Positions 1 to 62,419 of a stretch of 64,000 nucleotides of DNA are shown piece after piece (position 1 is the stretch's first letter; each line of letters begins with the position of its first letter). Source of the DNA: a bacterium (GTDB lineage: Bacteria; Joyebacterota; Joyebacteria; Joyebacterales; Joyebacteraceae); NCBI GenBank assembly GCA_025774935.1, contig JALGZK010000017.1, forward strand, positions 3,308 to 67,307, written 5' to 3'. The notes under the pieces are model-generated. The model saw only the letters and a list, made by a program, of their open reading frames with translations. It ran no database searches and was not told the DNA's origin. Both the position numbers and the translations under genes were made by a program.

Positions 1-3000
1 GTCTCGCCCTCGCCGGTCGACTGGAGGAAGTCCCCGCTCACGAAGGGCTCCCCGTCGATGGTGACCTGCACCGTCGGCGGGCTCATCTCGACGTGCGTCA
101 TCGGGTCGCCGAGAAGAATGTACGTCCGGTCCTCGGTCGACGACCCCTGTTCCGTTATGACCTTGACGGTCCCCTTCGTGACCACGCCGCCCAGTGACCA
201 CCGGGGCCACGGGTTGTCCTCCGGCGAGCCCTCGGGCGTCGGGTCGAGGAAGAAGGCCTCGAAGACCTTCTCGTTGTAGGTCGCGTTCGGGCCGAGGTAC
301 GCGATGCTTGAGCAGGCGAAGGTGCCGATCGCGCCCTGCCCGCCCGGCCTGAAGAGCATCTGCTCCACGATGCAGTCGACGCTCGTTCCCTCGTGCGAGT
401 CGTAGAACCGCGACAGCTCGCAGGACCATCCGAGGAAGATGAACGGCCTGCCTACGTTGTTGAACCTTGAGATGTCGTTCGTTCCGGTCGTGGCCAGGAT
501 GAGCTGCTCGTGCGTCATCTGGGTCCTGTTCCCGTGGCCTTCGAAGTTCACGATGTTGGTCCCGTTCGAGATCTGGTCGAACATGACGGGCGTGGCGTTG
601 TCGCGCACGTAGTTCGCCGTTTCGAACGCGTAGATGAAGTCGCCGGACGTCGTTTCGCCGTGGAACGGGTCGGTGAACCTGTGAAGAAGGAAGTGCGTCG
701 TGTCGATGCCCGCCGGGTTCGCGTCGACCATCTCGCCCAGTTCGAGGCTCACGGTGGCGAAGCGATCCTCCGAGGTGTAGCGAACGTAGTTCGATCCGAT
801 CGACCGGTACGACCACGAGTCGTCAGCGAGGAAGTAGACGTCGTTCCTCCAGTAGTCGTCGGGCTCATAGTCCTCGTACTCGATGATCTTCTGAACGAGG
901 TTCTCCAGCTGGCTCTGGGGTCCGACCGGGAGCCGGCCGATCATCATCTGCGGGAGGAAGAGCGGTCCGTCGCCGAACGAGATGAACCACTGGTCGCTCG
1001 CCCTCAGCTTGGGTTCGCTCGCGGGCGATCTGATGAAGAGATACGTGGGCAGGTAGTCCGGAGTGCTCGAGTCGAGGGTCTGCTTGGTGTCCTCGTTCGC
1101 ATCACCGACGAGGAGGCACCACTGCGGCTGCCGGTCCCACTCGTCCATGGCGTACTCGAAGAGGTTGCGGATCGCCTCGTGCGAGGGCAGGCCTCCGTTG
1201 AACTCGTCGTAGACCTCCTGGAGCTTCGCGTGCGTCACCACGTGCCCCTGGGACTCACGGAACGCTACGAGAGGCTCCACCCCGTTGTGGTGGCCGTCGT
1301 ACGAGACGACGATGAGGTCGGCCTCCCTCGAGAAGAGGTTGGCGGGCTCGCGCCTCTCGATGTAGATCACCTCGAGCGCGCCGCCCGTCTCGACCGCCTC
1401 GTATCGGGCGAACCCCGAGACGTCCGTCTGGAAGACCAGCCGGTATCCGCCGCCTTGGGGCTCGACGTTCACGGCGTCAAGGGCGAACTCGAGCGGACTC
1501 CACGGATCGGTCACGTCGAAGAGACGTATAGCGTCGTCGTCGAATCCCCCGACTTCGAACTGGCTCAGGCCGGTCTCTCCCCCGCTCGTGCAGGCGAGGC
1601 GACCGTCGACCGTCCGGTAGCTGCGCAGGTAGTCGAACTCGAACCAGTCCAGGTTCGCGCCCGACCAGCCACCCGGGCCGTCCGAGCCCTCCGCGACGAG
1701 CGAGTTCGCGCCGTCGGTGAAGTAGGACGCCGGGATCGGGGACGTCGGGTTCGCGTAGACGTCCTCGTCCATCGAGTAGGAGATGCCGCTGAACTGGAAG
1801 TCGTCGACGTAGTTCGTGGTTCCCGTCCCGTCCTTGATCGAGAAGTCGACGCGGTGGGAGCCGGTCGTGATGCCCTGGTAGCGAGCCCTCAGATAGACCC
1901 CTCCGGACGGGTCGATGTCGTGGATCGAGAACGGCAGCTGGTACTCGTCGTCTTCGTCCCCGTAGAACGTCCAGTGATAGTAGTCGACCTCGTCGTTCGG
2001 GGGGGTCGAGTCGTAGTAGACGTCCTCCTCGAACCTGAGGGTGTCCCGGAAGCTCGCAGGCGGCACGAGGCCGGGCTCGTCGAGCCAGCCCGGCGTCGTC
2101 TCCATCCTGGTCGCGACCCCTTCGCCCCACCCGAACCAGTACACGTTCTCCGTCGTGTAGCGGTCTTCGTAGCCTTCGACCATGACGCCGTCGGCGAAGC
2201 TCAGCGCGTAGAAGTAGAGGTAGTCCGACCCGTCGAAGAGGTCGTTCTCGTTCTCGTCGACCACGACGATCGCCGTCGGTGTCTCGACGAACGGATCGAG
2301 CTCGGCAGGCTCGTACGTCCTTCGGTAGACGCCGATCTCGTCGACCGAGCGCGTGCCGTCGAGGCCCTCGGCCGCGAGGTCCGCGAAGCTCACGCGATAG
2401 AGCCCCGTCTCGCCGATCCAGAGCCGGTAGGCTTCCTCGTCGTCCCGCAGTTCGATCCTCATGTGGGCGCGGCGGGGCTCCGGACGGGCGCGCCACCGCT
2501 TCGCCTGGTCGTAGTTCAGGATCGTGCCGGAGTAGATGCCCTCCCACGCGGGTTCGTGCCGGACCTGGGGGATCATCTCACGCTCGAGCCCGCGAGGGCG
2601 GCCCCGCCAGCGGTCCGCCGCGCGGATCCTCACCCTAACGACGATCCTCGAGTGGAGCGCGAGCTGCCCGGTGCGCGGCGAGTAGTGGAACGGGCTCAGG
2701 AGGACCTGGACGACGCGCTGGTGCCGGAACGTCGACTGCGCACCGAGCTCTGCGGCGGCCGCCGGGTACGAGCCCCCGCGCGCGTAGAACTCCTCGTTCG
2801 GGAGGTACTCCTCGGTCGCGATCGAGAACTCCTCGTCGGAGACGATGCCCTCGACCGGGGCGGGCTCGATGCGATACGGGCCGAGGGCCTCGGTCTCGAG
2901 GGAGACGACCTCGAGGGAGAGCTCCGCCCCGAACGGGACGCCCAGAAGAACGCCCTTCCTCGGGAGCTTCGGGAGGCCGGGCTCCGTCGTCGAGCCGTAC

Positions 3001-3188
3001 AGCGGGACGCGGACCCGGTAATAGGACTCGCCACCGTGCACGACCTCCTCGAGCGAGTAGTCGTCGGTGGCGAGTTCTACGAGTATCTCGTCGTCTGACG
3101 TTTCGAGGACCCGCGGGCCGTTCGCCGCGAGCGCCGGCGCACAGAGCAGGAGCGCGATGACCGCCGCGGACAGACACTTCTGGAGCAT
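1..3188 (-). CDS. Secreted caspase-fold cysteine peptidase, C25 gingipain/PorU-like (partial; C-terminus beyond window start). Over 1060 aa visible
   Basis: Hand translation of minus strand: signal peptide MLQKCLSAAVIALLLCAPALAANG starting at ATG 3186-3188 with GGAGGGGAGAGGG RBS. Near window positions ~600 and ~430 the motifs IVNFEGHGNRTQM (His-Gly) and RPFIFLGWSCELSRF (Ser-Cys) match the catalytic His/Cys dyad arrangement of peptidase C25. Not in ORF track because the stop lies off-window. Confidence 0.55.
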   Translation of the reverse strand, partial: MLQKCLSAAVIALLLCAPALAANGPRVLETSDDEILVELATDDYSLEEVVHGGESYYRVRVPLYGSTTEPGLPKLPRKGVLLGVPFGAELSLEVVSLETEALGPYRIEPAPVEGIVSDEEFSIATEEYLPNEEFYARGGSYPAAAAELGAQSTFRHQRVVQVLLSPFHYSPRTGQLALHSRIVVRVRIRAADRWRGRPRGLEREMIPQVRHEPAWEGIYSGTILNYDQAKRWRARPEPRRAHMRIELRDDEEAYRLWIGETGLYRVSFADLAAEGLDGTRSVDEIGVYRRTYEPAELDPFVETPTAIVVVDENENDLFDGSDYLYFYALSFADGVMVEGYEDRYTTENVYWFGWGEGVATRMETTPGWLDEPGLVPPASFRDTLRFEEDVYYDSTPPNDEVDYYHWTFYGDEDDEYQLPFSIHDIDPSGGVYLRARYQGITTGSHRVDFSIKDGTGTTNYVDDFQFSGISYSMDEDVYANPTSPIPASYFTDGANSLVAEGSDGPGGWSGANLDWFEFDYLRSYRTVDGRLACTSGGETGLSQFEVGGFDDDAIRLFDVTDPWSPLEFALDAVNVEPQGGGYRLVFQTDVSGFARYEAVETGGALEVIYIERREPANLFSREADLIVVSYDGHHNGVEPLVAFRESQGHVVTHAKLQEVYDEFNGGLPSHEAIRNLFEYAMDEWDRQPQWCLLVGDANEDTKQTLDSSTPDYLPTYLFIRSPASEPKLRASDQWFISFGDGPLFLPQMMIGRLPVGPQSQLENLVQKIIEYEDYEPDDYWRNDVYFLADDSWSYRSIGSNYVRYTSEDRFATVSLELGEMVDANPAGIDTTHFLLHRFTDPFHGETTSGDFIYAFETANYVRDNATPVMFDQISNGTNIVNFEGHGNRTQMTHEQLILATTGTNDISRFNNVGRPFIFLGWSCELSRFYDSHEGTSVDCIVEQMLFRPGGQGAIGTFACSSIAYLGPNATYNEKVFEAFFLDPTPEGSPEDNPWPRWSLGGVVTKGTVKVITEQGSSTEDRTYILLGDPMTHVEMSPPTVQVTIDGEPFVSGDFLQSTGEGE

Positions 3189-3302: not shown

Positions 3303-4673
3303 CTAGTGCGCCACCCTCGGCGCGTACGTGGCGTAGTCGAACTCCGGGCTGTTCTCCTTGTCGTGACAGGCACTGCAGGTCGCAGCCGTCACGACGCCGT
3401 AGGATCCGTCGCGCGCGTGGTCGGTGCCGATCCCGTGACACGCCTCACACTGGACGCTGCGGAGGATCGTCGGCACGCCGACTGATCCATCCTGCGGGAG
3501 GTCGAGGTGGCACGTCACGTGGCAGCGGAGACACTCCGGATTCGTCGATTGGTGCGCTTCCTCCAAGGTCGCGAACGCGTTCGCGTGCGCGGTCTCCATC
3601 CACTGATCGTACTGCGGCAGGTGGCACCGCTTGCAGGAGTCGTTGACACCGACGCAGACCTCCACGTACGCCTGCCTCGCCTGCGCCTTCGCCTCCCTCT
3701 CCCTCGCCCTCGCTGCTGCCCGCTCCTTGCTCAGCTCCTCGACCGCGACCTTGTGCTCCTTGAGCGCGAGCGCCATGACCGCGTCCGACGGGACCGTGTC
3801 GATGAGGGCGACGGCCTTGCCCGTGTAGCCTTCGTAGACGCCGTCGGCGTCGAAGCTCAAGCGGAAGTCCGACATGTACTGACCCTTGTATCCGGGCTGC
3901 ACGAAGACGGCCCCGCTCACCTCGTAGGGATCCGCCGAGAACGCGCTGTGGTTCCCCACGACGACGAAGTCGATCCCGCCGATCTGCCCGGCGATGTCCT
4001 TCGCCCTGGCGAGGCCCGTGTGGCTCAGGAGGATCACGAGATCCGCCTTCGTCCTGAGCTCGGGCACGAGCTCATTGAGAACAGCGTAGGGATCCGCAAT
4101 GGTGACCCCGGACGATTCGACCTCGCGGTGGGTCCTGAGATCGATTGAGGGATCCAGGACCCCCACGACCGCGAGCGTCACCCCCGCCCGTTCCACGATC
4201 ACATAGGGTTCGACGACGAGTTCCCCGGTTGATTCATCGAGGACGTTCGCCGAGACGATGGGCACGCCGCTCTCGTCGAATCGAGCGTGGAAGTAGTCGA
4301 GACCCATGTATAGGTCGTAGGCCCCGATTGTCGTCGCCGCGTATCCGATCTCCGCCATGCCCCTCAGGTTCATCGCGTCGACCATCTCGCGGGCGAACTC
4401 GCGTCGGGTCAGGGAGCTTCCGCCGTCGACGATGAGTTGGAGAGGTACGTTCTGTTCAAGCTGGTTGATGTAGCCGGCCCTCCGGACCAGCCCGCCTTTC
4501 TGGCCCCCGTGTCAGCCACAGGGCTCGAGTTCTCCCCGCGTGTCGGTGGTCACGAGGAGCGCAATCTCGAAGGGACCTTCCGGCCGTTCCACGCGCTCGG
4601 TCGTAGCGCAGCCGGCCGCGACGAGGACCGCCAGCACCACGATGAGTCCCCAACGGTTGACCAAGGCCTTCAC
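3303..4673 (-). CDS. Lipoprotein: degenerate 5'-nucleotidase/metallophosphoesterase-like domain fused to C-terminal tetraheme c-type cytochrome. Reading frame interrupted by in-frame TGA at 4512-4514 (possible pseudogene, sequencing error, readthrough or Sec)
   Basis: ORF 3303..4385 carries 4 CxxCH motifs (CKRCH, CLRCH, CEACH, CSACH) after a UshA-like region (VILLSHTG, VVVGNHS). The same frame continues upstream through TGA to a GTG/TTG start (4673/4664) after GGAGG, encoding lipoprotein signal VKALVNRWGLIVVLAVLVAAGC. UshA-like homology (LLVTTDTRGELEP ... GGLVRRAGYINQLEQNVPLQLIVDGG ... MVDAMNLRGM) spans the stop. Metal-ligand motifs are degenerate (DxH to DTR, GNHE to GAYD). Confidence 0.55.
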
Positions 4674-4945: not shown

Positions 4946-5551
4946 CTACCGGTACAGGCTCTTGATCGAGCCCCACGTGGCATCCTCGACCGGCACCGGC
5001 GGGACGCAGTCGCCGTCCAGCGGGGGCATGCAGAGGCCGAAGTTACCGGCGTGGCCGTGCGAGTCGATCGACGCGACGCACCACTCGTCGAGCAGGTTCT
5101 GGCAGTCCGCGCCGACGGGGCCGTCAACGTCGTGCGCCAGAATCGTGATCGTGCCGGGCGTACCGAGGTACAGGTACGTGACCACCGCAGCGACCAGGAC
5201 GCCGTTGGCATCCGGGAACTGGCAGTTGGCGCCAGCCGTGATCGCCCAGCCGGGGGCGACTTCGACATCGCCGAAGTCCAGGCCACCGAGCAGGTTCGTC
5301 TGGGCGAGCTTGAAGCCGCCGAACGTACGGTCGAACTTGAAGGCAGCGCCGAGCATGCCGCCACCAACGCCGAACTGGTCGAAGCAGACGTAGACGTCGA
5401 CGGTCGCGTTCGGGGCCGGACAGACTTCGTTCACGACGTCGTTGCCGGTGTCCATGTCGGCGTCGAGGAAGATCGCCAGGTTCGGGTTATCATCGGCGAA
5501 AGCCGTCGCCGCGAAAGCCAGAACCATCACAACAATCATGAGCCTCTTCAC
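4946..5551 (-). CDS. Small secreted protein, paralog family 1 (A), C-terminal tail PVEDATWGSIKSLYR
   Basis: ORF 4946..5602. Probable GTG start 5549-5551 9 nt after GGAGG. Signal peptide MIVVMVLAFAATAFA-DD. Core LAQTNLLGGLDFGDVE shared with B, C, E. Confidence 0.8.
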   Translation of the reverse strand: MKRLMIVVMVLAFAATAFADDNPNLAIFLDADMDTGNDVVNEVCPAPNATVDVYVCFDQFGVGGGMLGAAFKFDRTFGGFKLAQTNLLGGLDFGDVEVAPGWAITAGANCQFPDANGVLVAAVVTYLYLGTPGTITILAHDVDGPVGADCQNLLDEWCVASIDSHGHAGNFGLCMPPLDGDCVPPVPVEDATWGSIKSLYR

Positions 5552-5865
5552 GATCTCAAACCTCCGTGCTGAAGGAACAGCCGAAACCACACCAATCGTC
5601 AAGCTGCAAGGTCGTCGATCACCTCCTCCTGCTCATCTACATGACAGAGTGTCTCTCGGATGCCAGACGCTCCGAGCGTCAACGCTCCTCACACTTTCGC
5701 ACCTGACCTTAGTATAGCACAAGACCTTGGGTTTTGGAAGAGTTTTTTGTGGCGCTTGGGCGCTCTGCACAGAAGAGACACGAGCGACTCACTGTGAGGC
5801 GTCAGACGGGACGTGGCACGGGTTCCAGGGAGCGTCCGCGATATTGGATGAATACAGGTAACTAG

Positions 5866-5928: not shown

Positions 5929-6534
5929 CTACCTGTAGAGGGCCTTGATCGTCCCCCAACTCCGGTCCTCGACCGGCACCGCGGGCACGCAGTCGCCGTC
6001 CGGAGGAGGCATGCAGACGCCGAAGTTGCCGGCGAATCCGTGCGAGTCGAGCGACGCGATGCACCAGTCATCCAGGAGGTTGTCGCAGTCCGCGCCGACG
6101 TGACCGTCGACGTCGTGCGCCAGGATCTGGACGATGCCGGGCGTGCCGAGATACAGGTACTGAACCGAGGCAGCCACCACGACGCCGTTGGCATCCGGGA
6201 ACTGGCAGTTGGCGCCGGCCGTGATCGCCCAACCGGGGGCGACTTCGACGTCGCCGAAGTCCAGACCGCCGAGGAGGTTCGTCTGGGCGAGCTTGAAGCC
6301 GGCGAACGTACGGTCGAACTTGAAGGCGGCGCCGAGCATCCCGCCGCCGCCACCGAACTGGTCGAAGCAGACGTAGACCATGATCGTCTCGTTCGGGTTC
6401 GGACAGACCTCGTTCACGACGTCGTTGCCCGTGTCCATGTCGGCATCGAGGAAAATCGCCAACTGCGGGTTCTGATCGGCGAGCGCCGTCACCGCCAGCA
6501 GCAATACGAGCAGAACTGTGACCAGCTGTCTCAC
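5929..6534 (-). CDS. Small secreted protein, paralog family 1 (B), tail PVEDRSWGTIKALYR
   Basis: ORF 5929..6612. Probable GTG start 6532-6534 9 nt after GGGAGGAG. Signal LVTVLLVLLLAVTALA-DQ. About 85% identical to A. Confidence 0.8.
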   Translation of the reverse strand: MRQLVTVLLVLLLAVTALADQNPQLAIFLDADMDTGNDVVNEVCPNPNETIMVYVCFDQFGGGGGMLGAAFKFDRTFAGFKLAQTNLLGGLDFGDVEVAPGWAITAGANCQFPDANGVVVAASVQYLYLGTPGIVQILAHDVDGHVGADCDNLLDDWCIASLDSHGFAGNFGVCMPPPDGDCVPAVPVEDRSWGTIKALYR

Positions 6535-6654
6535 GCTCACACTCCTCCCTTCTCGCTCCCTCGCCTGGTTACCTCGCCACCCATCGGGGACCCGGCATCC
6601 CGCAATCACCACCGCCGTTGCCGCGGTGCCTCACGTTCGCCGGGCCCTGAGATG

Positions 6655-6727: not shown

Positions 6728-7345
6728 TTACCGGTACAGAGACTTGATGGCACCCCAGGTCGCGTCCTCGACCGGGCTGATCGGCTCGCAGTCGCCCGAG
6801 GGCGGAGCCATGCAGACGCCGAAGTGGCCGTCAAACTGGTGCGAGACCGTCGACGGGACGCACCACGTGTCGAGGAGGTTGTCGCAGTCGGAGCCGACAG
6901 GACCGTCGACCGGGTGCGCGAGGATCGTGATGGTGCCGGGCACGCCGAGGTACAGGTACGACACCGACGCGGCAATCACGATGCCGGTGGCGTCCGGGAA
7001 CACGCAGTTCGCGCCGGCCGTGATGGCCCAGCCACCAGCCTCGACATCACCAAAGTCGAGTCCGCCGAGCAGGTTCGTCTGGGCGAGCTTGAACCCACCG
7101 AACGTGCGCTCGAACATGAAGGCAGCGCCGAGCATGCCGCCGCCAACTCCGTCGCCAGCCGGTCCGAACCTGTCAAAGCAGACGTAGACGTCAAACGCCG
7201 CGTTCGGAGGCGGGCAGATCTGCGTCACGGGCGCCGTACCCGTATCGTTGTCGGAGTCGAGGAAGATCGCGAGGTACGGGTTCTGGTCTGCGAGCGCCGG
7301 GAGGGCGAACGCGAGCACCAGGAGAACAATCAGCAACTTCTTCAT
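6728..7345 (-). CDS. Small secreted protein, paralog family 1 (C), tail SPVEDATWGAIKSLYR
   Basis: ORF 6728..7366. ATG 7343-7345 after GGAGGG. Signal MKKLLIVLLVLAFALPALA-DQ. Confidence 0.8.
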   Translation of the reverse strand: MKKLLIVLLVLAFALPALADQNPYLAIFLDSDNDTGTAPVTQICPPPNAAFDVYVCFDRFGPAGDGVGGGMLGAAFMFERTFGGFKLAQTNLLGGLDFGDVEAGGWAITAGANCVFPDATGIVIAASVSYLYLGVPGTITILAHPVDGPVGSDCDNLLDTWCVPSTVSHQFDGHFGVCMAPPSGDCEPISPVEDATWGAIKSLYR

Positions 7346-7543
7346 CGTAGTCCCTCCGTTTCGCACGGAACGGTCATCTTCTCAAGCAGCTCCACAAGTG
7401 GTAAGTAGATGCTCTGGCATCACCTCCCCCAGTGGACGTCGGACAAATTCGTTCCATCAAAAGCCTGAGTCGGGAAATAGAACGAAAGCGCCGTACACCC
7501 TCAACGCCACACACCCACGTCCGTGCAACCGGCCAGAACCTCG

Positions 7544-8597: not shown

Positions 8598-9155
8598 CTA
8601 CCTATACAGACCCTTGATCCCGCTCCAGGTTGAAGCCTCGACCGGGCTCGAGGGCGCGTCGGTGCCCACGCCGAAGTTACTGAAGACGGTGGCCGTGTCG
8701 AGCAGGTTGTCGCAGTCGGAGATCACGAGCCCGTCGACGGGATGCTCCACGATCGTGATGGTGCCGGGCGTCCCCAGGTACAGGTACTGCACAGTCGCTA
8801 GCATCAGGTATCCGTTGGCATCCGGGAACTGGCACTCGGCCCCGGCCGTGATCGCCCAGCCGCCGGCCTCAACGTCGCCGAAGTCCAGGCCCGGAAGGAG
8901 ATTCGTCTGGGCCAGCTTGAACCCGCCGAACGTACGCTCGAACAGGAACGCTGCGCCGAGCGCTCCCCCGCCCGGTCCGAAGTTCTTCGCGACGACGTAC
9001 ACGTCGATCGTTCCGTTCGGAGCCGGATCGAGCCTGTTGTTCTCAGGCGGCGGCGGGTTGTTCGAGTCGCACCCGATCATGATGTTCGGGTTCTCGTCCG
9101 CCATCGCCGCGGTCGCGATGAACGCGACCAGCACTGCAGCCACCATGAACCTCAT
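8598..9155 (-). CDS. Small secreted protein, paralog family 1 (E, more divergent), tail SPVEASTWSGIKGLYR
   Basis: ATG at 9155 after GGAGGGAGGG. Signal MRFMVAAVLVAFIATAAMA-DE. Conserved core ERTFGGFKLAQTNLLPGLDFGDVEAGGWAITAGAECQFPDANG. Confidence 0.8.
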   Translation of the reverse strand: MRFMVAAVLVAFIATAAMADENPNIMIGCDSNNPPPPENNRLDPAPNGTIDVYVVAKNFGPGGGALGAAFLFERTFGGFKLAQTNLLPGLDFGDVEAGGWAITAGAECQFPDANGYLMLATVQYLYLGTPGTITIVEHPVDGLVISDCDNLLDTATVFSNFGVGTDAPSSPVEASTWSGIKGLYR

Positions 9156-57015: not shown

Positions 57016-58056
57016 CTACTCGCCGCGCCCGCCCGAGCCGATCCTGTCGAGTACGTCCCTTGCGATCTCGTAGGGGGAACGGTGTCCCCTCGTAACGTCT
57101 CCCACCATTCCGTCGAGGCCGGCCTCGCCTCCCATCCGTTCGAGCAGCTGGCGTTCGAGAGCGTCGACCACGATCGCGCGGACCTGCGACTTGAAGTGCG
57201 CGCGGCGCCGCTCCTCGAAGAGCCCCGCCGACTTGAGGAACTCGCGGTGCGACTCGATGGCGGCCGCGAGCTCGGGGATGCCGTCGCCGGTCGTGGCCGT
57301 CGTCTGGACCACCGGGGGCGACCAGCCTGTGCCCTCGTCCTTGAGCGAGAGCATCGACTGAAGCTCCGCGACAGTCATCTCGGCGCCCTCGCGGTCCGCC
57401 TTGTTGACGACGAAGACCTCCCCGATCTCCATGAGCCCGGCCTTCATCGCCTGGATGCTGTCGCCCGACTCGGGCACGAGCACGATGACCGTCGTATCCG
57501 CGGCCTCCGCGATGTCGAGCTCCGACTGCCCGACCCCCACGGTTTCGAGGATGACGAAGTCGAGCCCGTAGGCGTCCATCGCGGCGGCGACGCTGGGGGC
57601 CGCTCGGGAGAGCCCCCCGAGCCCCCCTCGGGTCGCCATGCTCCTGATGAAGACACCCTCGCGGGTGCCGAGGCGCTGCATCCTGATGCGGTCGCCCAGG
57701 AGCGCCCCGCCGGTGAACGGGCTCGTCGGGTCGACGGCCACGATGCCGACGGAGCCCCCTGCGTCGAGATAGTGCCCTGTGAGCCCGTCGACGAGCGTGC
57801 TCTTGCCCGCCCCGGGCGGACCCGAGATCCCGATCCGGTAGGCGGAGCCGACGCTCGGGTAGACGGCATCGAGAAGCGCGTAGCCGCGTTCGTCCTCGTC
57901 CTCGATCCAGGAGATCGCTCTCGCGAGCGCGACGGTGTCTCCGCTCAACACCCGCTCGACGAGAACGTCGACGGCAACGTCCCTCACGTCGTCCCCCTCG
58001 GCCCGCCCTCTCGGCGGGCGCGGGTTAGAACTCGATCCCCTCGCGCGCCTCGACAC
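57016..58056 (-). CDS. meaB: MeaB/ArgK-type G-protein chaperone of B12-dependent mutases
   Basis: P-loop GPPGAGKST. Start may be the internal GTG. Confidence 0.8.
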   Translation of the reverse strand: MSRRARGSSSNPRPPRGRAEGDDVRDVAVDVLVERVLSGDTVALARAISWIEDEDERGYALLDAVYPSVGSAYRIGISGPPGAGKSTLVDGLTGHYLDAGGSVGIVAVDPTSPFTGGALLGDRIRMQRLGTREGVFIRSMATRGGLGGLSRAAPSVAAAMDAYGLDFVILETVGVGQSELDIAEAADTTVIVLVPESGDSIQAMKAGLMEIGEVFVVNKADREGAEMTVAELQSMLSLKDEGTGWSPPVVQTTATTGDGIPELAAAIESHREFLKSAGLFEERRRAHFKSQVRAIVVDALERQLLERMGGEAGLDGMVGDVTRGHRSPYEIARDVLDRIGSGGRGE

Positions 58057-58552
58057 CGGCGTCGTAGTGGTGCTTGATCTTCAGCACCTCACTCACGAGG
58101 TCGGCCACCATCACGATCTCCGGATGCGCCGACCGACCCGTGAGGACGAGCTCGACGTGCGGGGGGCGTTCCCCGATCAGCTCCAGCACCTGCTTCAGGC
58201 TGACGAGACCGAAGTCGAGGGCGACGTTGATCTCGTCGAGAACGACGAGGTCGTGCTCGCCGCCCGTGATGACCTCGCGCGCCCTCGCCAGGCCGGCCTG
58301 GGCGAGATCGACGTCGACCTGCGGCGGGTTCTGCTTGTCGACGAACTCGTCGCGGCCGGACTGCTCGATGACGAACCCCGACAGGGCGCGAGCCGAGTCG
58401 AGCTCCCCGTAGTTCGAGCTTCCCTTCATGAACTGGATCACGTAGACGCTGAGCCCGTGGCCGACGGCGCGGAGGGCCAGACCGAGCGCGGCGGTCGTCT
58501 TGCCCTTCCCGTCGCCGGTATAGACCTGCACGGTTCCGTGCCTCTCCGGCAC
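58025..58552 (-). CDS. cobO: Cob(I)alamin adenosyltransferase (CobO/BtuR family)
   Basis: VYTGDGKGKTTAALG P-loop, 175 aa. Confidence 0.8.
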   Translation of the reverse strand: MPERHGTVQVYTGDGKGKTTAALGLALRAVGHGLSVYVIQFMKGSSNYGELDSARALSGFVIEQSGRDEFVDKQNPPQVDVDLAQAGLARAREVITGGEHDLVVLDEINVALDFGLVSLKQVLELIGERPPHVELVLTGRSAHPEIVMVADLVSEVLKIKHHYDAGVEAREGIEF

Positions 58553-58806: not shown

Positions 58807-58836
58807 TTGCCATCCGGAGTCTGGAAGTGGTATGAT
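58807..58836 (+). promoter_or_regulatory. Sigma-70-like promoter (TTGCCA-N18-TATGAT) for paralog F, implying a ~280-nt 5' leader
   Basis: Lower-GC island. -35 at 58807-58812, -10 at 58831-58836. Confidence 0.4.
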
Positions 58837-59122
58837 AGCGACGTTGGAAGCTCCCCTGCTTTTCGAGGGGGAAGCCTCAGACGTATGACTGTACAGGCGG
58901 TGACAGAGCGGTCCCCGCGCGAGCGAGGGACTGTCGGCAGACAACATGCGCTGCAGCGAGAGCCGGCGGTTCCGTGCGGGGTCCGCAGGAATCGTACGAG
59001 TCACCTCAACTCAGCGCGTGTGATCCGGTGAAAGGAGGTGAGCGAGGGACACCGGATTCGCAGCAAGAGTGTGTTGTTCCGCGGAACTGAAGCCAGTGAG
59101 TTGAGAGTAGGAGGCGGGAGAG

Positions 59123-59647
59123 ATGAAGAAGCTGCTAATTGCTATTGCGATCCTCGCCATCGCGGCCCCGGCCATGGCTCGCGAGATCGAGGGCGCGTTC
59201 GTGGATCTGGTCGACCCGGCGGCGAATGAGCTCATCCCCGGTGCGACCATGACCCTGAAGTTCATCGTCCAGAACGATTCGAGTGACGCCGAATGGCTCA
59301 CCGACGTTCACATCGCGTTCCCCGACGGGTTCGTCCTCCACGAGAGCACGATGGCCTACGACATGATCGTGGCCGGCCGGCCGAGCTGGGACCAGTATGT
59401 CCCGCCGGTTGACCACACGGCCATCTGGGAGGACAACAACGGTGGCTGGGGCGAGGTCTACAGCACCGAGTTCACGCACGTCTACATCGACGTGACGATC
59501 CCCGACCAGCTCTACGGCTGCATCTACTGGTCGCTGTGGGGAGACGAGTACGGCGACGAGCCCCACTGGGTCTGCGGCTGCATCGACGTCGGCTTCAGCC
59601 CGGTCGAGGATGCGACGTGGGGTGCGATCAAGGCGATGTACAGGTAG
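59123..59647 (+). CDS. Small secreted protein, paralog family 2 (F), tail SPVEDATWGAIKAMYR
   Basis: GGAGG RBS, signal MKKLLIAIAILAIAAPAMA-RE. Mature domain unrelated to family 1 but same C-terminal 15 residues. Confidence 0.8.
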   Translation: MKKLLIAIAILAIAAPAMAREIEGAFVDLVDPAANELIPGATMTLKFIVQNDSSDAEWLTDVHIAFPDGFVLHESTMAYDMIVAGRPSWDQYVPPVDHTAIWEDNNGGWGEVYSTEFTHVYIDVTIPDQLYGCIYWSLWGDEYGDEPHWVCGCIDVGFSPVEDATWGAIKAMYR

Positions 59648-59680
59648 TCCGAGCGCTCAACAAGCAGTACTGCTTTCCGA

Positions 59681-59716
59681 GAGCCCCGGCCATGTGGCCG
59701 GGGCTCTTCCTTTTCA
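59681..59716 (+). terminator. Intrinsic terminator of paralog F
   Basis: GAGCCCCGGCC-atgt-GGCCGGGGCTC then TTCCTTTTC. Confidence 0.6.
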
Positions 59717-59898
59717 CGTGCGCCTCTCCGACGGCCTCGTCGGCTGCTCCCGGGCACCGTTGCCCCCGGGGTCCCGGGCTCCGGGCGGCCACGACCAGCA
59801 GGGGTCGGCAGGGCCCGCCGCAGGGATCCCAGCGCCGTCTCCCGGCTTCTCGCCCCTCCCACGCCCTCCAGACCCCCCCAGGGGCCTCATCCTAACTC

Positions 59899-59927
59899 TT
59901 GACAAGTTCTGATACTCGTGATATCCT
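59899..59927 (+). promoter_or_regulatory. Sigma-70-like promoter (TTGACA-N17-TATCCT with TG extension) for paralog G
   Basis: TTGACA at 59899-59904. ~230-nt leader. Confidence 0.35.
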
Positions 59928-60164
59928 GATTATAGAGGGATGGCGACTCTCTGATTCAGACGGGCCATCGGGCCCACGGTTCGAGGGACACAATCCACGA
60001 TCTCGACTGCCCTGCTCCTCTCAGGGGAGCGCAGCAATGGAAGGAGGGCAGCCCGGGATAAGAGCAAGTCGACGGCACCGCGCCGAGCGCGATGCCGTCT
60101 GTTCACAGGTGGACCGGCTGCAGTCTCGCAGCCCCAAGTGCAGGTAGTACGAAGGAGGACGACG

Positions 60165-60686
60165 ATGAAGGTCCTGATGGTAGCGATCACGATTCTGGCG
60201 CTCACGTTCGCCGCCGGCGCGCGTGAGATCGACGGCGCGTACGTGTCCCTGACGTCGCCCGCGCCGCTCGACATCGTCCCGGCGACGGTGATGACGTTCA
60301 TCTTCTGGGTCCAGAACGACTCAGGCGACGCGGAGTGGCTCAGCAACATCCATATCACGTTCCCCGACGGCTTCAATCTCGTGGAGGGCTCGATGGGATT
60401 CGCCGAGATCGCCACAGGCCGACCCAGCTTCGACATGACCGTCAGCGGACAGACGGCTCAGTGGGACGACAACGACGGCGGCTACGGCGAGATCTACAGC
60501 ACCGAGGGCACGGAGGTGTGGGTCGACGCGTTCGTCCCGGGCTGCTACGAGTGCGGCGAGCTCTACTGGGAACTCTGGGGTGACGTCTGGGGCGCGGAGC
60601 CTCACTACGTCGACGGGGTCATCGACCTCTGCCCCTCGCCCGTCGAGGAGTCGACTTGGGGATCCATCAAGGCGCTCTACAGGTAG
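60165..60686 (+). CDS. Small secreted protein, paralog family 2 (G), tail SPVEESTWGSIKALYR
   Basis: ATG 60165 after GAAGGAGG. Signal MKVLMVAITILALTFAAGA-RE. About 50% identical to F. Confidence 0.8.
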   Translation: MKVLMVAITILALTFAAGAREIDGAYVSLTSPAPLDIVPATVMTFIFWVQNDSGDAEWLSNIHITFPDGFNLVEGSMGFAEIATGRPSFDMTVSGQTAQWDDNDGGYGEIYSTEGTEVWVDAFVPGCYECGELYWELWGDVWGAEPHYVDGVIDLCPSPVEESTWGSIKALYR

Positions 60687-60710: not shown

Positions 60711-60753
60711 GACGAAGAAAGGCCCCGGCATGGACTGCCGGGGCCTTTCACAT
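60711..60753. terminator. Bidirectional intrinsic terminator (paralog G on plus, tmRNA on minus)
   Basis: GGCCCCGGCA-tggac-TGCCGGGGCC perfect 10-bp stem flanked by A-run and T-run. Confidence 0.65.
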
Positions 60754-60754
60754 A

Positions 60755-61113
60755 TGGTGGAGGCGGCGGGAGTCGAACCCGCGTCCGAAAGCGATTCCAC
60801 ACGGACCTCTACATGCTTAGCCCGATCTTTGGATCTCGCCCCCCGGGTCTCCAATGGGCGGGATACCCGGCGAGCCAGCCACCGTATAGAGTTCGCCTCC
60901 TCACCCAGCGGCAAAGCTCGGAGACTATCCCGTGTAAGCGACGCCCCATCCCGGCCCCACGGGCAAAACCGGGTGGGACGCGTCCGCTCTAGTTAGCAGA
61001 CGTATGCCGGCTGGTAGTCGGCAGTTGAAAAGTCCCCGTTTGTTTAACGAGCCAACGGGACCTCGGCATGCCATCCGTGTTTCTCTCACCCCCGTCGAAA
61101 CCGGATCGCCCCC
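60755..61113 (-). ncRNA. ssrA: tmRNA (ssrA)
   Basis: Minus strand starts GGGGGCGAUCCGGUUUCGACGGGGG and ends GGGUUCGACUCCCGCCGCCUCCACCA (tRNA-Ala-like acceptor/T-arm + CCA). Candidate tag region GCCGACUACCAGCCGGCAUACGUCUGCUAA. Confidence 0.85.
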
Positions 61114-61209: not shown

Positions 61210-61584
61210 TCAGTCGAGGTCGCGCTGCGAGAGCGCGCGGAAGTACTGGTACCTCACGCCGTCGCGCTCGACGAGCGCTTCGAACGCTTCCCTGATGCGA
61301 TCCGGGTTCGTGATGGCCGGATCGTACTCGACGATCGCGGAGTTGTTGCGAGCGTAGGTCGTGACGCTGATCATCCCCGGCACCTCGGCGGTCATCTTCA
61401 CGAATCCCATGGACGTGCCGCGGCACCGGACTCCCTCGACGATGTACTCGACCGTGCCCACCTCCGCCGGGCGCTCCACATCGAACGGGAAGTGGAGCGT
61501 CGGCACCCGGTACAGGTTCGCTGTGGCGAACGCCGCGACGACGAGCACCGCGATCGCTGCGGGGATGATGACCGCCTTTCGCAT
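61210..61584 (-). CDS. Membrane-anchored protein with degenerate heavy-metal-associated (HMA)-like domain
   Basis: N-terminal TM. YIVEGVRCRGTSMGFV ... SAIVEYDP resembles an HMA fold lacking the CxxC pair. Confidence 0.4.
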   Translation of the reverse strand: MRKAVIIPAAIAVLVVAAFATANLYRVPTLHFPFDVERPAEVGTVEYIVEGVRCRGTSMGFVKMTAEVPGMISVTTYARNNSAIVEYDPAITNPDRIREAFEALVERDGVRYQYFRALSQRDLD

Positions 61585-61642
61585 GATGTGTCTTCCTTCC
61601 CCGACGTCGGCCGCGACTCAGGCGGCCGCGCAGTTCCCGCTG

Positions 61643-62419
61643 CTACTTCCCGTAGCAGGACAGCTCGAGCGCTCCCGACTCCGGACACTCTGACACGCAG
61701 TCGAGGCAGTTGGTGCAGTTGCGGGCGGTCACCTCGATCTCTCGCGAGACCGGGATCTGGTGCGGGCACACCCGGTCGCACTCTCCGCACTCCGTGCAGG
61801 CTTCGGGGTTCCGCCGGACGCGGAGCCCGCCGTAGCGGGAGAGCGGGTCCATGACGGCGCCGAGCGGGCAGAGGTAGCGGCACCAGAAGAACGGAACGAG
61901 CACCGCGGCCGCGAGGATCGCGAAGAGGATGTAGAAGCTGAACGCGGCGGTCCCGTGTCCGCCCCACGTGAACAGGATGTAGAACGGGTCGTACGCGCGG
62001 AACCCGAGGTCGCCCTTCCAGACGGTCCACGTGAGCAGGAGCACCAGGACGAGCACGACGTAGCGGAGGTTCATCGCCCAGCGGTCGCCGCGGTCGGGCA
62101 GGTGGAACGACCGGCCGAAGACCTTCCGGCCCGCGCGGGAGAGCCACTCGCTCACTGTCCCGAACGGGCAGACCCAGCTGCAAAACGACTTCTTCGTCGC
62201 GATCGTGAGCACGAAGAGGGACACCATGAGGGACACGTTGAGCTCGGTAAGCCGGCACGTGTACTGGCCGTACCGCGCGAGCGGTAAGAGCGCTGCAACG
62301 CCCCCGAATGGGCAGTACGCCTCGCAGGTGTTCGGCGTCAGCCCGGCGATCCCCCTCGCCATGAGGACGACCGTGCCGGCCAGAAACGCGATCTGAACGA
62401 GTGTCCTGAGAACCCTCAC
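61643..62419 (-). CDS. Membrane-bound 4Fe-4S polyferredoxin (NapH/MauN/CcoG-like family)
   Basis: Multiple TM helices plus CTECGECDRVCP and CTNCLDCVSECP clusters. Confidence 0.7.
   Translation of the reverse strand: MRVLRTLVQIAFLAGTVVLMARGIAGLTPNTCEAYCPFGGVAALLPLARYGQYTCRLTELNVSLMVSLFVLTIATKKSFCSWVCPFGTVSEWLSRAGRKVFGRSFHLPDRGDRWAMNLRYVVLVLVLLLTWTVWKGDLGFRAYDPFYILFTWGGHGTAAFSFYILFAILAAAVLVPFFWCRYLCPLGAVMDPLSRYGGLRVRRNPEACTECGECDRVCPHQIPVSREIEVTARNCTNCLDCVSECPESGALELSCYGK

Follow-up and report, generated by a model that had tools for sequence, protein, structure and literature searches.

What does it signify when proteins with dissimilar bodies, encoded far apart in one genome, end in the same 15 residues? 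The question is raised by a 64,000-nucleotide stretch (the window; G+C content 66.8%) of contig JALGZK010000017.1, assembly GCA_025774935.1, from a bacterium of the Joyebacteraceae. Two tandem genes of the window, F (59123-59647, + strand, 174 aa) and G (60165-60686, + strand, 173 aa), which we term family 2, share this C-terminal tail with four paralogous genes about 50 kb away on the other strand (4946-5602, 5929-6612, 6728-7366 and 8598-9155, all -), which have cohesin-like bodies and are termed family 1. Aligned over their whole length, F and G show 54% identity (E 4e-65), close to the approximate 50% of the original prediction made from the DNA alone, and contain the strings NDSSDAEWL and EVYSTE and the Trp-rich region IYWSLWGDEYGDEPHW to which it had drawn attention. 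Both open with Sec-type signal peptides (59123-59179 in F and 60165-60221 in G), with inferred cleavage after ...APAMA and before REIEG in F, and after ...FAAGA and before REIDG in G; these are of the AxA type, as are those of family 1. In F the signal peptide is followed by a beta-sandwich body. Both proteins terminate in the predicted sequence SPVE(D/E)(A/S)TWG(A/S)IKA(M/L)YR, namely PVEDATWGAIKAMYR at 59600-59644 in F and PVEESTWGSIKALYR at 60639-60683 in G, with the stop codon immediately following. The consensus of all six window proteins is PVE-x2-(S/T)WGxIKx(L/M)YR-stop; a degenerate DNA pattern for it has five matches in the window and none in each of 100 shuffles, and searches of the six proteins against Pfam and NCBIfam gave no match.

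One answer would be that families 1 and 2 are homologous throughout, with the tail being merely their best-conserved segment. BLASTP comparisons between the families recover the tail (14 of 16 residues identical) and a weak signal-peptide match, and nothing else. The picture is the same when a family-2 profile of 16 sequences is compared with a family-1 profile of 51 using hhalign, in that only the signal peptide and the final 17 columns (82% identity) align; the bodies alone, with signal peptide and tail removed, align with a probability of 0.4% (E 0.14). The low probability for the bodies argues that the shared tail is not ordinary family conservation. Thus, the absence of similarity beyond the tail, on which the original prediction had staked its argument, is borne out except for the signal peptide, and the full-length homology that would have undone that argument was seen in neither comparison. 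In favor of common ancestry, the signal-peptide match in hhalign runs slightly into the first strand, and the predicted bodies of the two families, both cohesin/YcnI-like beta-sandwiches, cross-match the same PDB entries, so that the description of the families as unrelated folds was overstated. Even so, we consider full-length homology a very improbable account of the tail, for reasons that become stronger once its wider distribution is considered.

A second answer would place the conservation in the DNA, either as a mobile sequence that carries a stop codon and has inserted itself at gene ends or as an artefact of assembly. The same 48-nt coding pattern does occur six times within 64 kb, as this would require. 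The six tails are 85% identical at codon positions 1 and 2, 62% identical at position 3, and the 60 nt downstream are at the random level of 28%. This pattern points to selection acting on the peptide and not on a DNA repeat, and it refutes a DNA element; together with the recovery of the tail from at least about 40 independent assemblies (see below), it leaves this explanation with a practically negligible probability.

We therefore turn to the distribution of the tail across genomes. A scan for the tail DNA pattern, including the stop codon, in 185,579 species, each represented by one genome, recovered at least 118 loci from at least about 40 assemblies, which are metagenome-assembled genomes (MAGs). 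Among the matches listed, 15 assemblies are labelled Eisenbacteria/Eiseniibacteriota and fewer are labelled Krumholzibacteriia, Latescibacterota, Gemmatimonadota and Effluviviaceae, with about half having no phylum label. These matches include at least 132 open reading frames (ORFs) ending in the tail, which fall into at least 39 BLAST clusters once the tail is stripped. Pfam searches with cluster representatives revealed PD40 propellers, X25/CBM20, NIDO, FG-GAP, CHRD, right-handed Beta_helix, Chlam_PMP, pectate lyase, DUF7901 and DUF7467 domains, which are genuinely unrelated folds of surface or secreted character. Found across at least 39 clusters, with at least 10 Pfam families represented, but in a restricted lineage, the tail conforms to what is seen for sorting signals. 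The occurrence of the same tail on beta-propellers, beta-helices, CBM20/X25 domains and pectate lyases effectively refutes full-length homology; moreover, the matches between a profile of F and G and the other carriers are confined to positions 154-173 and 1-20 of the profile. The original prediction regarded the sharing of the tail by two families as the strongest evidence for a functional signal: this was a correct and useful part of the argument, with the decisive evidence coming from the far wider carrier set. Taking together the at least 39 carrier clusters, the at least about 40 MAGs and the failure of the bodies to align, its central claim is supported and extended, and we conclude with high confidence that the tail is a functional, modular signal.

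The tail is strictly C-terminal. A protein-level motif search that does not require a stop codon, carried out on 867 kb of the listed loci, found 157 matches, 147 of which are followed directly by a stop; in the other 10 the stop comes within 5 residues, and there are no internal occurrences. This is the position expected of a C-terminal sorting signal. Its carriers are exported: a simple hydropathy heuristic detects a Sec-type hydrophobic N-terminus in 81 of the 93 complete carriers among the matches listed, with few lipoboxes, again as for cargo of a sorting signal. Conservation extends to positions that the search pattern left free, with S/T at position -10 in 123/128, A/S/G at -4 in 120/128 and R at -1 in 113/128 of the listed matches. 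With tail variants outside the search pattern included, W, I and K never vary, and the conservation of P, V, E, G and Y is 90% or higher. Immediately ahead of the tail, about 70% of carriers (L002-L119) have a Cys at a distance of 3-6 residues from the Pro of PVE, often as part of a CxxC or Cx4-5C pair, which suggests a disulfide staple closing the folded body.

Comparison of F and G with their homologs shows that the tail is interchangeable with known sorting signals. Close relatives of family 2 form 15 clusters among 5.8 billion proteins, and the tail is present in all of them. A profile of the 42-aa tail segment retrieved just 4 short matches from proteins, the word index used requiring several shared 5-mers. 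An HMMER scan with the F/G profile recovered 411 representatives at E<=1e-3; among these are proteins of 600-4,457 aa that contain the segment from about position 18 to 157 of the profile as an internal module. Among the hosts of this embedded module are gingipain-like Peptidase_C25 proteins ending in type A C-terminal domains (CTDs) of the type IX secretion system (T9SS), and others ending in dockerins. The module is covered by no Pfam model, and the F/G body (~135 residues) is a free-standing copy of this unannotated immunoglobulin (Ig)-like module of large C25 and other T9SS-type surface proteins. Of its small homologs (<260 aa), 52/77 end in a relaxed version of the tail, [ST]W[GST]x[IVL]Kx[LM][YF](R). 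Several others end instead in IPTL-CTERM, with P0256 passing the TIGR04174 cut-off and P0223 falling just below it, and some free-standing homologs end in a transmembrane (TM) helix with an Arg anchor. The same body is thus combined, in other lineages, with established sorting signals of other kinds, and among the comparative arguments for the tail being itself a localisation signal this 'choice-of-anchor' arrangement is the strongest. Distant free-standing homologs (P0138, P0142, P0143, P0154, P0166, P0168, P0194, P0210 and others) display a variant tail, ...(S/T)W(S/T)xVKSLY-COOH, from which the final Arg is gone; a few variant-tail homologs have Phe or Leu in place of Trp, and a few have 7-14 residues beyond the tail.

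A sequence search of PDB with the F/G profile found no relatives. The best structural match of F is YcnI/DUF1775 (PDB 7me6, 3esm), with 14% identity. There is no match to the Pfam DUF1775 model, and the copper-ligand His of YcnI is absent from the mature N-terminus of F, which instead begins REIEG. The F/G body is hence not placed in the YcnI/DUF1775 family, and the missing ligand leaves a link to metals unsupported.

In AlphaFold models of both families, the bodies are predicted with a predicted local distance difference test score (pLDDT) of 90-98, and the tail as a short helix with a pLDDT of about 58-65. The helix spans ~10 residues, with a mean hydrophobicity of about 0.05 and a hydrophobic moment of about 0.47; the former value indicates that the tail is neither membrane-spanning nor strongly lipophilic. 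These features bear on the possibility that the tail is a self-sufficient anchor, i.e. an amphipathic terminal helix that would bind the membrane surface directly and without a partner, like the C-terminal helix of PBP5/DacA. The predicted helicity, the approximate alignment of Trp, Ile, Leu/Met and Tyr along a single face, and the presence of a Sec signal peptide are compatible with such a role, whereas the shortness of the helix, its low hydrophobicity and its modest moment are not what it calls for. Furthermore, the invariance of W, I and K, the near-invariance of P, V, E, G and Y, and the conservation of R at -1 would appear to be more sequence-specific than lipid-binding helices usually need. 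Accordingly, we regard a partner-free anchor as unlikely.

The strict C-terminal position and the conserved last residue could also be those of a tag for periplasmic quality control or proteolysis. Free C-termini are what PDZ domains recognise, and a PDZ-type protease or regulator (Prc/CtpA/DegS-like) reading the tail would control turnover or signalling rather than location. This would sit poorly with the surface or secreted type of the carrier domains, and with homologs that swap the tail for signals of location, such as IPTL-CTERM, TM anchors and T9SS CTDs. In addition, conservation reaches 15 residues back from the C-terminus, beyond the needs of a PDZ ligand. We hold a role in turnover to be quite improbable. 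A further alternative, suggested by the cohesin-like or pilin-like sandwiches of families 1 and 2 and their tandem arrays of paralogs, is that the tail docks onto the cohesin-/Ig-like body of another subunit, in a dockerin-like or donor-strand-like manner, to build surface fibres or scaffolds. The presence of a dockerin-like protein inside the family-1 array is consistent with this. Against it, many carriers are enzymes or propellers, and not cohesin-like, and the tail lacks the Ca-binding repeats of dockerins and has no Pfam Dockerin match. Inter-subunit docking is thus, in our judgement, also an unlikely function. A role of the tail in sorting or anchoring by way of a dedicated factor, on the other hand, appears reasonably likely.

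Which of the known signals does the tail then resemble? The T9SS type A CTD (TIGR04183/PF18962), with its sortase PorU, offers a parallel in that it is C-terminal, modular over unrelated bodies and found on Sec-exported surface or secreted proteins of the Fibrobacteres-Chlorobi-Bacteroidetes (FCB) group. Proteins with such CTDs are abundant in the MAGs with the tail, often being encoded adjacent to tail genes, and PorU-like C25 genes are likewise neighbors of tail genes. The two signals are nevertheless distinct: the T9SS CTD folds into a beta-sandwich and measures about 70-100 residues, as against 15 residues for the helical tail; the tail does not match models for type A or type B CTDs (TIGR04183/PF18962, TIGR04131) at E<=1; and within the 867 kb of listed loci no copy of the tail motif lies within a T9SS CTD or ahead of one. 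Exosortase-type signals (PEP-CTERM, IPTL-CTERM and relatives) and 'choice-of-anchor' domains are comparable to the tail as short motifs at the extreme C-terminus of many unrelated exported proteins in restricted lineages. They possess a TM helix and a basic cluster, whereas the tail has neither a TM helix nor a terminal Arg cluster, and thus an intramembrane sortase cannot act on it in the same way. Consistent with this, just 10 residues follow PVE-x2, and no NCBIfam model of the PEP-CTERM, IPTL-CTERM, exosortase, archaeosortase or rhombosortase type is matched. The LPXTG sortase signal, made up of that motif, a hydrophobic segment and a charged tail, is absent from the F and G sequences. The tail also differs from the outer-membrane beta-signal, which has a terminal aromatic residue and a G-x-x-hydrophobic-x-hydrophobic register on a beta-barrel body, since its last residue is Arg, a Lys is found at G+3 and the bodies are soluble sandwiches, and from dockerins, which comprise two Ca-binding repeats over about 60 residues: the tail is too short and has no match to Pfam Dockerin_1.

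Two further parallels deserve mention. The S-domain of the secretins of type II and type III secretion systems is likewise a short C-terminal peptide (about 15-20 residues); disordered by itself, it turns helical on its pilotin lipoprotein and serves to deliver a Sec-exported protein to the outer membrane. It differs from the tail in serving one substrate per system, rather than being shared by dozens of families, and in having no sequence similarity to it, and no counterpart of the pilotin emerged from our analysis. The adhesin modules of the Porphyromonas gingipains, which are C25 peptidases, are released by cleavage after Arg or Lys and stay associated with the surface. Similarly, the F/G body is found C-terminal to C25 catalytic domains, and the tail has a terminal Arg and an invariant Lys; unlike the gingipain adhesins, F and G are separate genes, and Pfam searches found no homology to 'cleaved adhesin' domains. 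The tail motif is not present in Pfam or NCBIfam release 20, and no description of it was found in the literature searched (using the motif strings, and Eisenbacteria with sorting, T9SS or secretion). Thus, the tail fits none of the signal classes tested, and matches C-terminal sorting signals in every feature tested other than a recognised partner.

The best lead to such a partner comes from gene neighborhoods. Clustering of ~1,080 neighboring ORFs uncovered mostly family-specific synteny, with the C25/PorU-like class being the only one that recurs across different tail families. In the window, an exported PorU-like C25 peptidase (3-3188, -; Pfam Peptidase_C25, 4.6e-60, and C25 propeptide), whose C-terminus is cut by the window edge, is a neighbor of the family-1 array. 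It aligns with positions 5-742 of the NCBIfam model for PorU, the T9SS sortase, at 193 bits, which is below the cut-off of 420; its full-length orthologs score 267-273 bits and have a T9SS-type CTD at the end, those in loci L024, L074 and L089 being about 1,250 aa long. Between this gene and the family-1 array is a gene for a 360-aa cytochrome c554-like protein (3303-4385, -) with a multihaem C-terminus containing several CxxCH motifs. The PorU-like gene, preceded by the c554-like gene, flanks family-1 arrays in seven loci, i.e. the window, L011, L024, L074, L086, L089 and L113, and in the loci examined it always adjoins family-1 tail arrays. More generally, the listed loci contain 22 C25-like ORFs, and for 14 of them a tail gene is found no more than 1.5 kb away, in most cases as the immediately preceding gene on the same strand; the pairs form several distinct conserved subfamilies (about five by our own grouping). 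C25 is the immediate downstream neighbor of 11/94 tail genes as compared to 10/255 other genes (odds ratio 3.2, p 0.01), these counts being non-independent. In two-gene units found in L010 (232-5311), L057, L030, L118, L062 and L085, and also in L052, L076, L105 and L004, a tail protein of about 430 or about 215 aa is followed after 30-460 nt by a C25-like protein of 1,140-1,570 aa with a T9SS type A CTD at the end. Proteins with FlgD-Ig/T9SS type A CTDs (...KMVLLK) are also abundant in the tail loci, often beside tail genes. In a Latescibacterota chromosome (CP070631; L059, 4163-6877, -), a 206-aa tail gene is directly upstream of an Omp85 gene with POTRA domains, with a Crp-family regulator on the opposite side. 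Being a single case with no counterpart in the other loci, Omp85/POTRA was set aside as a general partner and is retained as a lead only.

PorU is itself a C25-type enzyme, one that cuts off C-terminal sorting domains and fixes the cargo at the surface, while C25 enzymes of the gingipain type cut behind Arg or Lys. In conjunction with the invariant Lys and terminal Arg of the tail, these activities make docking to, or processing by, a PorU-like protein the most concrete hypothesis for its action. The explanation that we currently favor, and consider reasonably probable, is that F and G are Sec-exported proteins with a lineage-wide C-terminal address tag situated outside the fold. In this view the tag is a short terminal helix that is not hydrophobic, carried at the flexible end of the Sec-exported protein. 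After export, a dedicated envelope factor would recognise the tag, and the tagged protein would then be retained, attached or co-exported at the cell surface. The best current candidate for this partner is a PorU-like/C25 peptidase of the T9SS, which could process the tag in the manner of a sortase or serve as a carrier onto which the tag docks; the hand-over could take the form of docking for co-export ('hitch-hiking') or of sortase-like cleavage and attachment. Paralogous C25 enzymes might then be encoded beside their own tail-bearing substrates, just as pilus sortases are encoded beside pilins. The involvement of C25/PorU-like proteins is at this stage a tentative proposal. The fully specified version, in which the tail is the address label of an unrecognised envelope-sorting route of Eisenbacteria and related FCB-group phyla that hands Sec-exported proteins to the PorU-like C25 peptidases of the T9SS, is more speculative still and, as a whole, rather doubtful.

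Several observations weigh against an address tag read by C25 proteins. The association with C25 genes is only suggestive because the loci were chosen for their tail genes and orthologous loci were counted repeatedly. F and G themselves have no C25 neighbor, being located between cobO/meaB and a transfer-messenger RNA (tmRNA) gene, and our analysis identified no recognition or processing factor for the tail. To our knowledge, there is no established outer-membrane route for a tag that has neither a TM segment nor a folded CTD, and a purely periplasmic role for the tail proteins is possible. Finally, the tail might pack against the body in a way that the low-confidence AlphaFold prediction does not reveal.

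The local organization of F and G indicates that each is a unit in its own right. A consensus scan of the region yielded 4 promoter sites against 0.4 expected. These include the two sigma-70-like promoters of the original prediction at the positions assigned to them, TTGCCA-N18-(TG)TATGAT for F (58807-58836, +) and TTGACA-N17-(TG)TATCCT for G (59899-59927, +), both with a TG preceding the -10 element. The hexamers of both are kept in the orthologous loci L084 and L093 and those for F are identical there; this conservation, with varying spacers, supports the two as genuine promoters. Downstream of F is an intrinsic terminator (59679-59717, +), formed by a 13-bp GC-rich stem followed by UUCCUUUUC, the 78-nt stretch around it having a folding energy of -38.3 kcal/mol (z -4.4). 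G is followed by a hairpin with a 14-bp GC-rich stem (60717-60749; z -5.6), probably a bidirectional terminator, in the interval that separates its stop codon from the 3' end of the tmRNA gene, which runs convergently. With its own promoter and its own strong terminator, each gene constitutes a separate transcription unit, and the nature of these elements suggests that both units are probably well expressed. The start of G is best placed at the ATG at 60165, which is preceded by 6 nt by a Shine-Dalgarno (SD) sequence, AAGGAGG (60152-60158). The start proposed earlier, at 60138, represents an in-frame upstream GTG extension; both the SD spacing and the gene calls of 173 and 174 aa on a near-identical 31-kb MAG contig (GCA_025774965.1, found via the cobO neighbor) favor the ATG.

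The leaders of both genes are long, as had been noted, and include a strong SD, with inferred transcription starts giving ~279 nt for F (58844-59122, +; SD AGGAGG at 59109-59114) and ~230 nt for G (59935-60164, +). Elsewhere in family 2 the lengths are 262/236 nt, 198 nt, 141 nt and 67 nt, for an overall range of 67-279 nt. In the window, the hairpin described at 58846-58872 is a weak one (-13.4 kcal/mol, z -0.23), although L084 (z -2.5) and L093 (z -5.3) have hairpins of different sequence at the corresponding position; thus, a 5'-terminal hairpin is kept across F leaders despite changing sequence, and it may serve as an mRNA-stabilising stem. A purine-rich block, GGAAGGAGG, is conserved ~95-115 nt upstream of the start codons of both F and G. 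The corresponding SD-like blocks, GAAAGGAGGTG (59030-59040) in the F leader and GGAAGGAGGG (60039-60048) in the G leader, are also present in the divergent L093 leaders. In the G leader, GGAAGGAGGG forms the 3' arm of an internal hairpin by pairing with an upstream CCUC-rich tract, with a few compensatory changes. A leader peptide behind these internal blocks was considered and rejected since no conserved start codon follows them. The original prediction took the leaders as a sign of post-transcriptional regulation, a reading that found no support. Rfam searches with the leaders, at gathering thresholds and at E<=10, returned no match (best scores 16-26 bits against cut-offs of 39-80); the minimum free energy z-scores of the leaders, -1.8 and -1.2, are unremarkable; RNAalifold on three F and three G leaders gave unfavorable covariation terms, with many broken pairs in the divergent L093; and comparison of F with G leaders revealed no common sequence. 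Given these results and the variable leader length, we dropped the interpretation of the leaders as riboregulators.

The tandem F/G pair recurs in L084, L093, L112 and L017, in a conserved gene order, meaB-cobO-[F,G]-tmRNA-HMA-Fer4_5. In the window the pair is flanked by 58025-58552 (-) and 61210-62419 (-), with cobO/meaB to one side and, to the other, the tmRNA gene together with those for an HMA-domain protein and a Fer4_5 membrane protein, and this position is fixed in several MAGs. The tmRNA gene itself (60755-61113, -; Rfam score 208.9 bits) is convergent with G and has the terminator hairpin in common with it. ARAGORN assigns to it the tag peptide ADYQPAYVC, from which the usual Ala-Ala end is absent; the resume codon may be mis-assigned.

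In the cases of LPXTG, PEP-CTERM and the T9SS CTDs, each signal led to the discovery of a dedicated machine for secretion or attachment. The tag described here, with its 15 sharply defined residues, is carried by dozens of different exported proteins, among them enzymes, propellers and cohesin-like modules, throughout an uncultured phylum-level group. The tail provides a simple sequence handle for listing the surface and secreted proteome of these organisms, and makes the search for the cognate receptor or enzyme directly testable. Its repeated pairing with PorU-like C25 peptidases suggests that there is an unexplored side to type IX secretion.

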